This document shows positions 2,780 through 49,725 of a stretch of DNA of 55,600 nucleotides, piece by piece (positions within the stretch are counted from its first letter, which is position 1; each line of letters begins with the position of its first letter). Origin of the DNA: Patescibacteria group bacterium (lineage in GTDB: Bacteria; Patescibacteriota; WWE3; UBA101185; UBA10185); the NCBI GenBank assembly GCA_018825365.1, contig JAHJEV010000001.1, forward strand, positions 1 through 55,600, written 5' to 3'. The notes under the pieces were generated by a model. That model saw only the letters and a program-made list of their open reading frames with translations. It made no database searches and was not told the DNA's origin. The translations under genes were made by a program, and so were the position numbers.

Positions 2780-2857
2780 ATGATTTTTAGTGGTGGCCAG
2801 GGACTAGTGGAGGATATAAAAAGGCGGTGGCTTTTTGTTCTTTCGGAGAGACCGGCA

Positions 2858-2988
2858 AAATTTTTTGCCGTGGGTGGGAATCCGCGAAGCGGATTTCTGC
2901 CAGACCGCCAGAGGCGGGCTGGCAGTCAGAAGTCAGCGTCAGGATTTTCGCTAAAAAAAGTTCGGATTTCGTTCAGCGTTCGGAGCCA
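2858..2988. repeat. Right copy of the perfect 131-bp inverted repeat (partner 133-263)
   Basis: Exact reverse complement of 133-263. Confidence 0.97.
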
Positions 2989-3013
2989 GGAAACGGACAA
3001 TCTGTAAATGCAA

Positions 3014-3041
3014 TTGACAAATTGTCCGAATATGCTATATT
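3014..3041 (+). promoter_or_regulatory. Sigma70 promoter (leaderless transcript)
   Basis: TTGACA-16 nt-TATATT with TGn extension, 7 nt upstream of ATG 3049. Confidence 0.65.
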
Positions 3042-3048
3042 TGCTTTA

Positions 3049-4209
3049 ATGATAGCAAGAACAGCCCGCCCAAGGTTATTGGAAATGATATCAAAATATC
3101 CTGTTTTGGGTGTTTTGGGACCAAGACAATCCGGTAAAACCACGCTGGTAAGAAACGCCTTTCCTGATTTCACATATATCTCTTTGGAGACTCCTGACAA
3201 TAAGGAATATGCCACAAAAGATCCACGAGGATTTTTGGATAGATATAAATCCCCAGCTATATTTGACGAGGTTCAAAATGTTCCAGAATTGTTTTCATAC
3301 ATACAAGAAAGGGTTGATGCGGGAGGCGAAAGCGGACAGTACATATTAACGGGATCACAAAACTTTATTTTAAACGAAAAAATATCACAAACGTTAGCGG
3401 GTAGGATTTATCTTATCAACCTGCCAACTTTTACTCAAGAGGAACTAAAAGATGAAACAGTAGATGAAGATTGGAAAAAATACGCTCTTAAGGGAACATA
3501 TCCTAGAATATGGGATAAAAGACTAACACCTGAAGAATGGTATCCAAGCTACATTCAAACATATCTGGAAAGAGACGTTAGAAATATAAAAAACATACCT
3601 GATTTAAGAGATTTTCAAACTTTTCTAAAGCTTTGCGCGGGGAGAATTGGCCAAACTACAATACTAAGCTCTTTAGCAAATGAGATAGGTGTTTCCCACA
3701 ACACTATAAAATCGTGGATATCGGTTTTAGAGGCCAGTTATTTGATTTTTCTTTTAAAGCCTTATTATAAGAATTTCAACAAAAGACTTACGAAATCACC
3801 TAAGCTGTATTTCTTTGATACAGGACTTGCCGTAAACCTTCTCAATATTACAAATCCCAACCAAATAGAAACACATCCACTAAAGGGTAATATATTTGAA
3901 AACCTAGTCATTTCAGAAATCGCGAAATCGACTATTAATAAAGGTAAATCAGACTTGGGATACTTTATTAGAGATAAAACAGGCAATGAGGTTGATTATG
4001 TTTCGGAAAAGGGCGGGTTCCTATCTCTTGTAGAAATAAAAGCGTCCAAAACACTTAATACGGACCATCTTAAAGGTATTGAATACTGGGAAAATGTGAT
4101 TAGGGAAAGTAGAAGAGACAGCTTTCTTGTTTATGCGGGGAATGAAGAAAAAACATTTAAAAGCACCAAGTTTATTAGATGGAATAACATAAGCCAAATT
4201 ATAACTTAA
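3049..4209 (+). CDS. AAA+ ATPase with DUF4143 (PD-(D/E)xK) domain
   Basis: Walker A GPRQSGKTT, FDEVQ, LTGSQ, LAGR, KLYFFDTGL and EVDYV...EIK. Start moved from 2827 to ATG 3049, because the extension is the inverted repeat. Confidence 0.9.
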   Translation: MIARTARPRLLEMISKYPVLGVLGPRQSGKTTLVRNAFPDFTYISLETPDNKEYATKDPRGFLDRYKSPAIFDEVQNVPELFSYIQERVDAGGESGQYILTGSQNFILNEKISQTLAGRIYLINLPTFTQEELKDETVDEDWKKYALKGTYPRIWDKRLTPEEWYPSYIQTYLERDVRNIKNIPDLRDFQTFLKLCAGRIGQTTILSSLANEIGVSHNTIKSWISVLEASYLIFLLKPYYKNFNKRLTKSPKLYFFDTGLAVNLLNITNPNQIETHPLKGNIFENLVISEIAKSTINKGKSDLGYFIRDKTGNEVDYVSEKGGFLSLVEIKASKTLNTDHLKGIEYWENVIRESRRDSFLVYAGNEEKTFKSTKFIRWNNISQIIT

Positions 4210-4286
4210 AACCACACAGTATCTTAATTTGTTCTAATGAAATCTCAATTTCCCTGTTACAGAGCATGTCAACCAAGAGGAGCCAA

Positions 4287-4928
4287 TTAAAGATTTTGAA
4301 GTCTGTTTTCCGATAATTGTGAAATTTCCCGTATAAAAAACTGCTTTATTTCTTCCCACTCTTTTTCTATCTCGACAGATCGTTCGGACAAATTTTCTGC
4401 ATCATCAAAGTACACTAATGACCTCAAGATATGGGGCGTAAAACTCCCCTGTCGAGCATATTTTTTATCGTTTAGATCAATCATATACTCAAGAGGCCAA
4501 CCTCTATCTTTAGCTATTTTGTATACATCAAAAAAATCCCTTTTTAACCCTCTCCCTGCTATCGCTTCTAGTTTCATAGCTGCGATATCTTCAACAGACG
4601 CAATATTAAAGCTTAAAAACTCTGTTGCCTCTTTTAAAAGTTTGTATTGATAGTAAAACAGACTTATCCCAGTATCTTTTGATTTTCCATGCAAAGTTTG
4701 CCACGAAGTAGAAATAAGTTGGAAATCAGGAATCTCACTACCAAATTTTTGCTTCATTTCATCAAGATCAAACTCTACAGGCGAATAAATATCTAAATCA
4801 TAAGAATTTCTATGATTTATCCATAGTGCAAGGGCTGTACCCCCAGCCAAATAACTCTTGGGAGGCGTAACTTTATTTAATATACCCAAGATGTTTTTGG
4901 CGTTTTCTGTAAGTCTTTGTTCAAACAT
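4287..4928 (-). CDS. AbiEii/AbiGii-family nucleotidyltransferase toxin
   Basis: YLAGGTALAL, HRNSYDLDI, IAAMKLEAIAGRGLKRDFFD. Confidence 0.88.
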   Translation of the reverse strand: MFEQRLTENAKNILGILNKVTPPKSYLAGGTALALWINHRNSYDLDIYSPVEFDLDEMKQKFGSEIPDFQLISTSWQTLHGKSKDTGISLFYYQYKLLKEATEFLSFNIASVEDIAAMKLEAIAGRGLKRDFFDVYKIAKDRGWPLEYMIDLNDKKYARQGSFTPHILRSLVYFDDAENLSERSVEIEKEWEEIKQFFIREISQLSENRLQNL

Positions 4929-22942: not shown

Positions 22943-23018
22943 TGGTGCACCCGGAGGGACTCGAACCCCCGACCTCAGCGTCCGCAACGCTGCGTTCTAT
23001 CCACTGAACTACGGGTGC
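22943..23018 (-). tRNA. tRNA-Arg(GCG)
   Basis: CAGCG-TTGCGGA-CGCTG arm, A20 in D-loop, G37, CCA. Confidence 0.94.
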
Positions 23019-23072: not shown

Positions 23073-23663
23073 TTATTCTTTATCTTCAACACCGAACTTC
23101 TTAACTATCTTGTCATAAGCATTATCGAAAAACGTTTTAGGTTCCTGCTCCAAAAAGTGAAGGTATTTATTAAAAACTTCCCTTATCTTTTCCTTATCTT
23201 TTGGATCAAAGTGGATAAATAGTCTTCCGGGAATTCCCATTGTGGTATCAACAACAGCAATCTCAGTTTCTCCCCTCTGTATAAAAAAATATCTTCTAAG
23301 TTCGTCCCAGTAATACAACTTCCCGTTTACAGTTATACCAAATGAGTTTAGTTCGTAACTCATCTTCTCGGGAGGCATTTTCATTAAGGCCTGAGTGACA
23401 AAAATAATACTTCCGATAACCAAAATTACAAAAAATTCCTGCATGGCAAGGAGTAGTAGCCCGACAAAAATCCCTATAATCGTGAGGGCTCTAATAAATC
23501 TTTTGTTCATCCCTCGCGTCTCGGGGTGGCTTGTGGCCTCCCAGCTAAGAAATATCTTCTTTTCTCCAAGCTGCTCCCTACTATACCCCGGCACTTTCGG
23601 AGGTTCCAAAGTCTCGTGAGAACTTTTGATACCTACCATATTTCCTAGATTAGAGAGATTCAT
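23073..23663 (-). CDS. Conserved membrane protein, DUF5673-like
   Basis: SWEA, two TMs, YELNSFGITVNGKLYYWDEL. Start moved to ATG 23663 (TATAAT 6 nt upstream) because the track start lies inside a tRNA. Confidence 0.7.
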   Translation of the reverse strand: MNLSNLGNMVGIKSSHETLEPPKVPGYSREQLGEKKIFLSWEATSHPETRGMNKRFIRALTIIGIFVGLLLLAMQEFFVILVIGSIIFVTQALMKMPPEKMSYELNSFGITVNGKLYYWDELRRYFFIQRGETEIAVVDTTMGIPGRLFIHFDPKDKEKIREVFNKYLHFLEQEPKTFFDNAYDKIVKKFGVEDKE

Positions 23664-23710
23664 AAATAAATTATACAACAAGGGGAATGAAATAAAACTG
23701 CAAATAAATC

Positions 23711-23798
23711 TGGCGGAGAAGGTGGGATTCGAACCCACGATACCTTGCGGTATGGCGGTTTAGTAAACCGCTACACTCGGCCACTATGCGACTTCTCC
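23711..23798 (-). tRNA. tRNA-Ser with ACT anticodon
   Basis: GGAGAAG/CTTCTCC-G-CCA acceptor, GCGGT-TTACTAA-ACCGC anticodon arm, ATACC-GCAA-GGTAT variable arm, GTGGG-TTCGAAT-CCCAC T-arm. Confidence 0.9.
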
Positions 23799-23818
23799 AT
23801 TCAAAATTGCTAAATTTC

Positions 23819-23907
23819 TGGCGGAGGGTACAGGATTTGAACCTGTGGACCGGTTTAACCCAGTCGCGGCTTAGCAAGCCGTTGCATTACCACTCTGCCA
23901 ACCCTCC
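23819..23907 (-). tRNA. tRNA-Ser(GCT)
   Basis: Cloverleaf, TT-GCT-AA loop, long variable arm, G73, CCA. Confidence 0.95.
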
Positions 23908-24191
23908 AAGATCTCAAAGCTCTCACATTATACCAAAGATACTAATCTTTGATTAAAAATTAGCAATTAACCAGCGGGGTCTGCTTTATAGCGTTATTTG
24001 TGGGCACGAATACCAAAACCTCCATTTTTATGTCATTTATACGAGTTTTCCATAGGTTATCCACAATTCCGTATTTGTTGTTACTGCAATGTCTTATTGA
24101 TGCTGGGCCTGTAGTTATGTATTTAAACGAACTGATAGTACGCTAGGGGGACTCTATTTATTTAGTGTTAACCTATTTGTAGTGATCGCTC

Positions 24192-24220
24192 TTGACTTAT
24201 GTATTACAATGTAATACACT
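24192..24220 (+). promoter_or_regulatory. TA-operon promoter with overlapping palindromic operator
   Basis: TTGACT-17 nt-TACACT; perfect IR GTATTACA-A-TGTAATAC at 24201-24217. Confidence 0.75.
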
Positions 24221-24227
24221 GTTATAC

Positions 24228-24515
24228 GTGTGCGGTTATGAAATTCAAGTTGATAATTTAATTTGGAATGATTTCAATACCTCTCATATAGCAAAACATG
24301 GGGTTAAAATTTATGAAATTGAAGTGTTGCTAAAAGACAAAAGACTTAAGTTTCTATCTGCTAAGAACAATAGGTTCTTTGCTTTAGGTAAATCAGGAAA
24401 ACGACTTCTGGCCATGGTGATAACTAAAGAAAGAGGCGATAAATTTTACGTAGTCACCGCTCGAGACATGAGCAAATCAGAAAGGAGGTACTATAGAAAT
24501 GACAAAAATAAATAA
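24228..24515 (+). CDS. BrnT-like type II toxin
   Basis: IW...HIAKHGV...RFFALG...LLAMV...VVTARDMSKSERRYY; GTG start 7 nt after the -10 element. Confidence 0.8.
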   Translation: MCGYEIQVDNLIWNDFNTSHIAKHGVKIYEIEVLLKDKRLKFLSAKNNRFFALGKSGKRLLAMVITKERGDKFYVVTARDMSKSERRYYRNDKNK

Positions 24516-24774
24516 AATTCCAAAATTTAATACCATAAAGGAAGAAGCTGATTTTTGGGACAAACACAGCATCACAGACTATCTACCAGAGCTTGAGCCA
24601 TCAAAACTCTCATACAAAACAAAAGGTGAAAGAAAAGAAGTTGTAACAATCAGATTTTCACCTGCATTAAAAAAAGAACTCTCAAAAGTCGCGGACGAGT
24701 ACGATATATCACCCTCTTCTTTAGTTAGAATGTGGGTAGTAGGCAAACTACACGATGTAAGCAAAAGCGATTAA
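24499..24774 (+). CDS. CopG/BrnA-type antitoxin
   Basis: KIPKF...EEADFWDKH N-terminus and RHH-like VTIRF...LVRMWV C-terminus; overlaps the toxin stop. Confidence 0.82.
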   Translation: MTKINKIPKFNTIKEEADFWDKHSITDYLPELEPSKLSYKTKGERKEVVTIRFSPALKKELSKVADEYDISPSSLVRMWVVGKLHDVSKSD

Positions 24775-24783
24775 TGATGTTAA

Positions 24784-25162
24784 TGGTAGGGATGGCGGGA
24801 GTTGAACCCACGTTCCGAAGCCTTTTTTATACAGTTTCTACAAGTTTAACCGAACATTATCTTGGGAAAGCAGGTATCCGGTAAACCCTTTGTGCTTTCT
24901 GCAGGTTTTTCTTTGGAATTTCTCCCTTGGCGACTTGAGTTAACCAAACTCAAATGACCTCATCCTGGTTTTATTAGGCTAAGCCAAAAACTCTCCAGGA
25001 AGAATTTTTGTTGCCAGTTTCCGCTTTGTTAAGCGTTAACGTATGCCATTGCTGGCACAAATGCTTTTTTATCGGCATTTATATTTTTGCTGACTTTTAA
25101 GGTGTCTGCGAACCTACTTGCAACCATATAATAACTGCACCGGTCAAATCCAATGCATCCCC
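24784..25162 (-). ncRNA. ssrA: tmRNA
   Basis: 5' GGGGATGCATTGGATTTGAC; resume context ATAAATGCC; tag ORF ADKKAFVPAMAYVNA* (25076-25029); T-arm GTGGG-TTCAACT-CCCGC; ACCA end; adjacent to smpB. Confidence 0.92.
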
Positions 25163-25248: not shown

Positions 25249-25731
25249 TTATTGAGTCCAAACGCTTCTTTTTATTTCCTTTGATTCCTTAGCCAAATCT
25301 ATTTTTATCTGTCTGTCCTTCGCTGTTTGTTTCTTTTCAAATTCTTTTTTGCCTTTTACAACTGCAAATTCAAGCTTAATCTTGCCATGCTGCATAACCA
25401 AAGCCGTAGGAACTGCGGTCTTACCCTTTTCCGATAGCTCTCTTGTTATATCCGCCACTTCCTTTTTGTTTAAAAGAAGCGGTCTTGATCTTTTTTCATC
25501 AAACTTTTCTGAAGTTTCAGACTGCTTGGAGTACCTACCTATATATAGACCAGTAACATGCAACACCCCGCTAATTAATTTTATATAGGAACCTTCAAAG
25601 TCTACTTTTCCTTCTCTTATGGCCTTTACCTCATATCCTTTTAACACAATACCGGCAGAATACCTCTCCAAAAGAGTGTGATTAAACATTGCTTTTCTAT
25701 TTTTTGCTAAAAGAAGTCCTTTTCCCTTCAT
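25249..25731 (-). CDS. smpB: SsrA-binding protein
   Basis: NRKAMFN, AGIVLKGYEVKAIREG, RPLLL, GKKEFEKK. Confidence 0.95.
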   Translation of the reverse strand: MKGKGLLLAKNRKAMFNHTLLERYSAGIVLKGYEVKAIREGKVDFEGSYIKLISGVLHVTGLYIGRYSKQSETSEKFDEKRSRPLLLNKKEVADITRELSEKGKTAVPTALVMQHGKIKLEFAVVKGKKEFEKKQTAKDRQIKIDLAKESKEIKRSVWTQ

Positions 25732-48693: not shown

Positions 48694-49725
48694 CTAGAAC
48701 CTATCCATTATTCCCAAAGAAGGGTTGGCATCCAGCTTTTCGTATTTCACCTGTTTGTTATTGAAAAATGCCGCGCCTGCAATGTAAACAGCGTTATCGG
48801 TGCAAAGACTTATGGGCGGGACATGAGTTATTATACCAATTTTCTCTGCCTCCTCACGTATCCTTTTTCTCAGAACCCTGTTTGCTGAGACACCTCCTCC
48901 CAGCAAAATAGTTTTAACCTTGTATTTCTTTGCAGCTCTTATAGTTTTTTTAACTAAAACATCAACCACCGCATTCTCAAATTCACAAGCCACTGCTTCC
49001 GCAGCATATTTGTTTTCTTCGATTAATCTCCTAGATGATGTTTTTAAACCAGAAAAAGAAAAATCAAAGTTATCCTGGTCAAGCATTGGTCTTGGCAATT
49101 TACCTTCTAAGATATTTTCCTCGCATTCTTCGGCTTTTTTGGAAAGAAAAACCCCACCTAAATACTTTGATAGGCCCAAAAGTCTTGCGACTTTGTCAAA
49201 CGCCTCTCCCGCCGCATCATCCAAAGTTCCTCCTAGATATTCAAAATTCCCATGTCCTTTTATTAAGACCAAATCTGTGTGCCCACCACTTACAAGAAGG
49301 GCAATTGAGGGAAACTCAACAACTTTATCGTTACCTATAAAATTTGCATAAATATGTCCGACAAGATGGTTTACCGGAATAAGAGGTTTTTTCAAAGCTA
49401 GAGACAGGGCTTTCGCAGCTTCGATGCCTACAATCAAAGAGCCTACCAGCCCAGGACCGATTGTAACCGAAACTGCATCTATCAGTTTGTAACACTCATC
49501 TAACGACCCTAGTCTTTTTGCTTCTTTAAACTTTTCAAAACACGCAGCGATTACAGGTGTTATAGCTTCAACTTGTTTTCTTGCCGCTACCTCCGGAACA
49601 ACACCCCCTGTTTTCTCGTGAAATTCTTTTGAGGATGCAACAACACTGCATATTTCTTTTGTACCGTTTTCAACAACGGCAGCGGCTGTTTCGTCACAGG
49701 ATGTTTCGATACCTAAAATGATCAC
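48694..49725 (-). CDS. tsaD: tRNA N6-adenosine threonylcarbamoyltransferase
   Basis: LGIETSCDET, GGVVPEVAAR, NHLVGH, VSGGHT, DDAAGEAFDK, FSFSGLK, DNA. Confidence 0.97.
   Translation of the reverse strand: MIILGIETSCDETAAAVVENGTKEICSVVASSKEFHEKTGGVVPEVAARKQVEAITPVIAACFEKFKEAKRLGSLDECYKLIDAVSVTIGPGLVGSLIVGIEAAKALSLALKKPLIPVNHLVGHIYANFIGNDKVVEFPSIALLVSGGHTDLVLIKGHGNFEYLGGTLDDAAGEAFDKVARLLGLSKYLGGVFLSKKAEECEENILEGKLPRPMLDQDNFDFSFSGLKTSSRRLIEENKYAAEAVACEFENAVVDVLVKKTIRAAKKYKVKTILLGGGVSANRVLRKRIREEAEKIGIITHVPPISLCTDNAVYIAGAAFFNNKQVKYEKLDANPSLGIMDRF

Follow-up and report, generated by a model that had tools for sequence, protein, structure and literature searches.

A Patescibacteria tRNA-Ser family with anticodon ACU and its proposed role as a dedicated AGU decoder

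The window analyzed here, 55,600 nucleotides of a contig from a small, uncultured Patescibacteria (CPR) group bacterium (JAHJEV010000001.1, positions 1 to 55,600), encodes a tRNA-Ser with the anticodon ACU, situated 20 nt 3' of a tRNA-Ser(GCU) gene. To our knowledge, bacteria almost never keep A34 tRNAs in codon boxes split between two amino acids. This gene is intact, the stems of its family carry compensatory changes, A34 is invariant, a GCU gene coexists with it, and AGA still specifies arginine. We propose that it probably encodes a functional accessory elongator tRNA of a conserved CPR family, in which an unmodified A34 would be dedicated to the serine codon AGU; we infer its expression, the state of A34 and its AGU specificity from the comparisons below. 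Literature searches turned up neither a bacterial or CPR family of tRNA-Ser(ACU) nor any split-box A34 tRNA described as conserved.

Structure and serine identity of the tRNA-Ser(ACU) gene

ARAGORN placed six tRNAs on the minus strand of the window, Ser(GCT) and Ser(ACT) among them (Table 1). The Rfam tRNA model matched the ACT gene with E=3e-9 and no non-canonical pairs flagged, its score standing well above the RF00005 gathering score of 29. Read on the minus strand, the tRNA is GGAGAAG-UC-GCAU-AGUGGCCGA-GUGU-A-GCGGU-UUACUAA-ACCGC-C-AUACC-GCAA-GGUAU-C-GUGGG-UUCGAAU-CCCAC-CUUCUCC-G-CCA, comprising an anticodon stem-loop (GCGGU-UUACUAA-ACCGC) with a 7-nt loop, a variable arm formed by a 5-bp stem and a GCAA loop, and the discriminator G73 before CCA. 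The anticodon occupies plus-strand positions 23762-23764, with base 23764 corresponding to A34. The long variable arm and G73 together mark a type II tRNA-Ser; the discriminator of tRNA-Leu and tRNA-Tyr is A73. The pairs G1-C72, G2-C71, A3-U70 and C11-G24, which are SerRS identity pairs established for E. coli, are common to the window's other Ser tRNAs and invariant across every aligned Ser tRNA, as are the acceptor bases G1 G2 A3 G4 and G73. G18-G19, the T loop and the stems are all canonical, and the alignment distinguishes the ACU tRNAs from the GCU gene by an invariant U31-A39 pair and U32...A38 within the loop.

Judged by its sequence, the ACU gene encodes a canonical type II tRNA-Ser, for which charging with serine is predicted. 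The preliminary description had presented it as an intact, fully paired type II tRNA of Ser identity, with A34 at base 23764, the loop TT-ACT-AA and a 20-nt spacer to the GCT copy, and the ARAGORN and Rfam results, G73, the long arm and a direct reading of the sequence bear out each of these points. It had also held that the two copies differ throughout, so that the ACT gene is no recent duplicate bearing one error, in agreement with their identity of 58%.

Table 1. Positions of features in the window
Feature	Position	Strand	Evidence or comment
tRNA-Ser(ACU) gene, 88 nt, CCA encoded	23711-23798	-	ARAGORN; Rfam RF00005, 52.2 bits; conserved family with 8 covarying pairs
20-nt spacer between GCU and ACU genes	23799-23818	-	Read from the sequence; no promoter-like site
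tRNA-Ser(GCU), resident AGY decoder, kept at the site in all relatives	23819-23907	-	ARAGORN; Rfam, 57.9 bits; alignment
TGGTATAAT, extended -10-like element 19 nt upstream of tRNA-Ser(GCU), putative promoter of a dicistronic transcript	23927-23935	-	Read by eye
tRNA-Arg(GCG)	22943-23018	-	ARAGORN; context evidence for CGY decoding by G34, not I34
TsaD, t6A37 synthase subunit	48694-49725	-	Pfam PF00814, E=3.5e-77
SmpB	25249-25731		Upstream of the tRNAs
tmRNA	24784-25162		Upstream of the tRNAs
BrnT ribonuclease toxin and BrnA (CopG-type) antitoxin pair	24192-24774	+	Between tmRNA and the tRNA-Ser pair
ORF of 196 aa downstream of the tRNAs	23073-23663		Weak DUF5673 match
TGTATAAT	23661-23680	-	Exactly 6 nt before the ATG of the 196-aa ORF
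ORF of 1350 aa	25776-29828	+	No Pfam/NCBIfam match
ORF of 466 aa	29833-31233	-	No Pfam/NCBIfam match
ORF of 1028 aa	31278-34364	+	No Pfam/NCBIfam match
DUF4143/AAA_14 ATPase and AbiEii-type nucleotidyltransferase toxin	2827-4928		

Occurrence in independent assemblies and relatives

The protein of the ORF just downstream of the tRNAs led to two further assemblies of the locus. One, an NCBI MAG contig (L011; GCA_043824185.1), carries the GCT+ACT tandem with the same anticodon and a single mismatch to the window in 5152 nt; the other, a Logan assembly (L012; SRR26275509), has a tandem identical to that of the window. The tandem is also present in three diverged relatives: L001 (~90% nucleotide identity, SmpB 93%), L019 (85% nucleotide identity) and L013 (~79% nucleotide identity, SmpB 78%). 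In L001, the sole change in the ACU tRNA is U25 to C, by which G10-U25 becomes G10-C25. Because the anticodon is the same in all five, a sequencing error at base 23764, the first point that the preliminary description had wished to see confirmed, is rejected.

A survey of relatives for Ser-ACT, likewise suggested there, gave a divided answer: the gene follows GCU in L001, L019 and L013, and is absent from that site in L002, L004 and L006-L010 (SmpB identity 65-70%), where the GCU gene stands alone. Since the downstream promoter and ORF are kept in the relatives having the GCU gene alone, what separates the GCU-only from the tandem arrangement is about 108 bp that are either wholly present or wholly missing. 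In L004 the ACU gene is missing from all three of its known positions. Its absence there and after GCU in L002 and L006-L010 makes the gene look accessory, being dispensable or patchily distributed among relatives.

A conserved and covarying tRNA family

A metagenome collection was scanned with the first 25 nt of the ACU tRNA, three positions being left free, which returned 30 contigs. ARAGORN identified eight of the matching tRNAs as Ser(ACT) (L013, L016, L019, L024, L033, L037, L040 and L042) and the remainder as Ser(GGA), with GCT found in 0/30; L031 contains one more Ser(ACT), whose acceptor stem differs slightly. As tRNAs sharing this 5' body carry ACT or GGA and never GCT among the 30, A34 appears to be stably kept and does not look like an occasional G34A change.

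Genes with the same body thus occur in nine further contigs and in at least four genomic contexts. In the window, L001, L013 and L019, Ser(GCT) precedes the ACT gene by 20-24 nt; in L016 the preceding gene is Ser(CGA), at a distance of 12 nt, and in L033 it is Ser(GGA), at 9 nt. The ACT gene stands alone in L037 and, between CGA and GGA, in L040, and in L042 it is found 211 nt after GCT. Wherever the contig extends far enough, a GCU gene is nearby (window, L001, L013, L019, L031 and L042).

A34 is present in 13/13 genes and 10/10 distinct sequences, and the loop UUACUAA is invariant across the latter. At least three sequence subtypes can be told apart by their anticodon stems (GCGGU/ACCGC, GCAGU/ACUGC and GAGGU/ACCUC); the T stems (GUGGG, GAGGG and GCGAG) and variable arms also differ, and CCA is encoded in some genes and absent from others. 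Despite this variation, 99.6% of stem cells in the 10 distinct sequences pair, with both sides changed in 8 of the 26 pairs. None of 500 shuffles reached the observed covariation, and pairing was lost when the partner columns were slid. Together, these comparisons assign the window's gene to a tRNA family conserved across diverged Patescibacteria-type contigs in differing positions.

Origin of the tRNA body

The ACU tRNA is 58-61% identical to GCU tRNAs and 79-82% identical to the tRNA-Ser(GGA) of other CPR lineages, a difference which argues that it is no G34A mutant of the neighboring GCU gene. The tRNA-Ser(GGA) genes of L014, L015, L018, L020 and others have exactly the acceptor stem and D arm of the ACU tRNA (GGAGAAGTCGCATAGTGG.CGAGTG), match its T arm completely or almost completely, and resemble it in the variable arm. 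The anticodon arms, by contrast, are wholly unlike (GCGGU-UUACUAA-ACCGC in ACU, CCGCC-UUGGAAA-GGCGG in GGA) and serve different Ser codon boxes. The ACU tRNA therefore looks like a UCY-type Ser body that has been given an AGY-type anticodon arm. Such re-targeting would be possible because the anticodon is not read by SerRS.

Two other origins were considered and rejected: sporadic G34A mutation of the GCU gene, in view of the GGA-type body, the invariant A34 of the family and the compensatory changes; and derivation from a phage or mobile element, the pattern of the 5' body having matched 0 IMG/VR viral contigs and no integrase having been found near the ACU gene in the window neighborhood. 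Metagenomic tRNA-Ser(GGA) genes sharing the acceptor stem and D arm of the ACU tRNA (L014, L015, L018, L020-L023, L025-L030, L032, L034-L036, L038, L039 and L041) are often divergently paired with tRNA-Leu(TAG).

Transcription of the GCU and ACU genes

The spacer between the two genes is too short for a promoter, and TGGTATAAT, upstream of the GCU gene, is the sole extended -10-like element at the window's tRNA pair; both points argue for co-transcription. A strict two-hexamer scan for sigma-70 promoters gave no call at the tRNA pair, TGGTATAAT included. The stand-alone ACU genes of L037, L040 and L042 are preceded by TGnTAnAAT elements resembling TGGTATAAT, namely TGCTATAAT, TGCTAAAAT or TGGTACAAT. 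In the window, the GCU and ACU genes would be transcribed from TGGTATAAT as one precursor, from which the ACU tRNA would be processed out.

Meaning and usage of AGN codons

Counts over 44 ORFs (15,278 codons) gave AGA 328 (21.5 per 1000), AGG 130, AGU 196 and AGC 148. AGA is the commonest Arg codon, accounting for 58% of them. In an ungapped comparison of RpoD regions 2-4 with B. subtilis SigA, AGA codons face Arg at 18 of 24 positions, Lys at 3 and Ser at none; in comparisons with relatives, for which only subject codons outside the AGN box were counted, the residues opposite AGA and AGG are mostly K/R and those opposite AGU and AGC are N/S/G/D. AGA and AGG thus remain Arg codons in the window, as the preliminary description had concluded for AGA from conserved Arg positions of rpoD, and reassignment of the AGN box is rejected by this small Codetta-like count and the SigA alignment. 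As AGA is the main Arg codon, its efficient reading by the ACU tRNA would harm the whole proteome.

AGU is modestly preferred over AGC, with AGU/(AGU+AGC) = 0.57 in the window. This fraction does not set ACU-bearing loci apart from other loci, with no evident signal of codon demand. In the ACU-bearing L040, AGA (14) and AGG (7) stand against 43 CGN codons, unlike the window, in a small sample (11 kb of a 314.8-kb contig).

State of A34 and decoding

The tRNA that normally carries wobble inosine, tRNA-Arg(ACG), is near-universal in bacteria. The window and every related locus with a tRNA-Arg gene (L001, L002, L004, L006, L007, L011, L012 and L019) encode tRNA-Arg(GCG) instead, and Shulgina and Eddy found ACG apparently lacking throughout CPR, with GCG in its place (PMC8629427). 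This replacement suggests that wobble inosine is probably absent from the lineage. A tblastn search of 386 kb (the window and related loci, which are genome fragments only) detected no TadA-like ORF, and literature searches found no report of TadA in Patescibacteria. TadA recognizes the anticodon-loop motif U33-A34-C35-G36; the ACU loop UUACUAA has U at position 36 and departs from this motif. With no tRNA-Arg(ACG) and presumably no TadA, A34 would stay adenosine.

Expectations for such an anticodon come from engineered tRNAs. In E. coli, an orthogonal tRNA with anticodon ACU on an archaeal body (M. jannaschii Tyr), and so not the window's tRNA, decoded AGU at 9.4% and AGG at 0.36% and gave no detectable reading of AGC or AGA; A34 in this tRNA escaped deamination even though TadA is present (PMC11066159). 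Over-expressed E. coli Ser-tRNA(ACU) was non-toxic and improved growth in several media (Raval et al., bioRxiv 10.64898/2026.05.15.725136). The premise of the preliminary description that A34 in this box would misread AGA is weakened by both results.

Taken with the lack of Arg(ACG) and of an I34 system in CPR, the E. coli data make an AGU decoder with unmodified A34 the best explanation of the gene. SerRS would charge the ACU tRNA through its long variable arm, G73 and the acceptor and D-stem pairs, not the anticodon; A34 would pair with the third base of AGU as a Watson-Crick A:U pair; and tRNA-Ser(GCU) would go on reading AGC and AGU beside it, leaving AGA and AGG to Arg. The same route, from missing TadA through unmodified A34 to a dedicated AGU decoder, had been suggested from the sequence at the outset, and it is now favored on the indirect evidence of Arg(GCG) in these loci and, as published, in CPR generally (PMC8629427). 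U36-A37-A38 is the usual context for t6A37. Its presence in the ACU tRNA, together with the TsaD gene of the window, is compatible with t6A37 on this tRNA.

Among the alternatives, it is unlikely that another modification of A34, or a tuned anticodon arm, lets the tRNA read both AGU and AGC as a redundant second AGY isoacceptor. We know of no enzyme or precedent for such a modification. The U31-A39 and U32...A38 features that set the ACU tRNAs apart from the GCU gene would suit this reading, as would the largely unexplored state of tRNA modification in CPR, yet unmodified ACU prefers U to C by at least 95:5 (PMC11066159).

A use outside decoding, such as supplying serine for the aminoacylation of lipids or the cell envelope, or drawing off anticodon nucleases as a decoy, seems quite improbable. 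The redundancy of the ACU tRNA with GCU, its patchiness among relatives, its shifting genomic position and the missing codon-usage signal would all fit such a use; against it stand the fully canonical G18-G19, T loop and stems and the strict conservation of the entire anticodon loop with its U36-A37-A38, as decoding would require, and no aminoacyl-transferase gene linked to the ACU gene was found.

Deamination of A34 to inosine, or superwobble, by which the tRNA would also read AGC and AGA and so give a programmed or tolerated Arg-to-Ser ambiguity, appears very improbable, and the earlier suggestion of programmed Ser/Arg ambiguity is not supported. Classical wobble rules would allow it, some engineered split-box A34 tRNAs were deaminated in E. 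coli (Raval et al. 2026 preprint), and the weak reading of AGG by anticodon ACU points the same way. However, AGA makes up 2.1% of all codons and occupies invariant RpoD Arg positions, the TadA substrate tRNA-Arg(ACG) is missing from the lineage, and ACU escaped even the TadA of E. coli, with AGA reading below detection (PMC11066159).

It is hardly credible that the gene is an extra copy evolving neutrally or decaying, or that it arose as an error of sequencing or assembly: split-box A34 tRNA genes do occur sporadically among the bacteria of GtRNAdb, but this one recurs in independently made assemblies and in species as distant as ~79% nucleotide identity, with compensatory substitutions, an invariant anticodon and promoter-like elements before its stand-alone copies.

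Comparison with known A34 tRNAs

Natural precedents fall mainly in four-fold boxes. A GtRNAdb survey (Raval et al. 2026 preprint) found non-ACG A34 genes mainly there, as Leu-AAG and Thr-AGU conserved in Lactobacillales and Mollicutes, with split-box A34 genes only sporadic and always alongside a GNN gene. The Mycoplasma/Mollicutes tRNA-Thr(AGU) has an unmodified A34 (Andachi 1987 and Inagaki 1995, as cited in PMC11066159), and TadA-less Mollicutes exist (PMC3711424). Like the Mycoplasma tRNA, the ACU tRNA is a genomic, lineage-conserved A34 elongator of a reduced, AT-rich bacterium in which wobble inosine is probably lacking or dispensable and A34 is presumed to be unmodified. The Mycoplasma tRNA, however, serves a four-fold box; superwobble does no harm there, and the tRNA can take the place of other isoacceptors. 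tRNA-Ser(ACU), by contrast, belongs to the split AGN box, has a G34 isoacceptor beside it and has to leave AGA and AGG unread. Leu-AAG and Thr-AGU of Lactobacillales and Mollicutes resemble the ACU family in being conserved at the lineage level in AT-rich bacteria; they differ in that they belong to four-fold boxes and have replaced the GNN gene, and in that Leu(AAG) is deaminated to I34 by TadA, while the ACU family retains the GNN gene in a split box and has no evident I34 system.

The sporadic split-box tRNA(ANN) genes of GtRNAdb share with the ACU tRNA a two-fold box and an accompanying GNN gene, but they are scattered singletons, in contrast to a family with three subtypes, 8 covarying pairs, more than nine contigs and four contexts. 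The engineered ACU tRNAs of E. coli (PMC11066159; Raval et al. 2026) have the same anticodon and supply the expectation that it is AGU-specific, undeaminated and non-toxic; they are artificial, built on an M. jannaschii Tyr or E. coli Ser body, whereas the window's gene is natural and conserved.

A wider proposal, which we regard as evenly balanced, is that selection has long kept a split-box A34 tRNA in Patescibacteria free of wobble inosine, as a GGA-type body with a new anticodon arm that has moved or spread, usually landing behind another tRNA-Ser; it would then be the first natural, conserved A34 decoder of a two-fold box. If so, the near-universal absence of split-box A34 tRNAs would depend on TadA and I34, not on A34 decoding itself. 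A bolder version of this proposal would add low-level, condition-dependent Ser insertion at AGG or AGA. Why bacteria avoid anticodons starting with A is an open question under active test (Raval et al. 2026 preprint). For split boxes, misreading is the explanation usually given, and the natural examples known to date are either sporadic genes or tRNAs of four-fold boxes. A tRNA-Ser(ACU) maintained by purifying selection in a clade without Arg(ACG) or inosine would be a natural experiment that can be cloned and assayed per codon, and its distribution could be correlated with TadA loss over thousands of CPR genomes. It would further suggest that a tRNA-Ser body can be switched from one Ser codon box to the other (UCN and AGY), and it warns annotators not to dismiss such A34 genes as errors or pseudogenes.

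Other features of the locus

The window has a G+C content of about 39%, and loci related to it through SmpB belong to MAGs labelled WWE3, Patescibacteria or 'Saccharibacteria'. Upstream of the tRNA-Ser pair lie the tmRNA and SmpB genes, with a BrnT/BrnA toxin-antitoxin pair in between (Table 1). On the downstream side, the spacing of TGTATAAT from the start codon of the 196-aa ORF is kept in all relatives (L002, L004, L008 and L019), which suggests a conserved leaderless mRNA.

In L004 (12978-13135), an exact repeat of the last 21 nt of tRNA-Ser(GCT), CAAATCCTGTACCCTCCGCCA, occurs about 130 nt downstream of the tRNA and looks like the att-site scar of an element that integrated and was later lost; such a scar would make the 3' side of tRNA-Ser(GCT) an insertion hotspot. 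L001 (12284-12795) has about 510 extra bases, absent from the window, between the ACT tRNA and the downstream ORF. Further afield, the large ORFs of 1350, 1028 and 466 aa, which have 28-40% identity to counterparts in relatives, may encode CPR-specific surface proteins, and the ATPase and nucleotidyltransferase toxin genes near the start of the window suggest defence or toxin-antitoxin islands.
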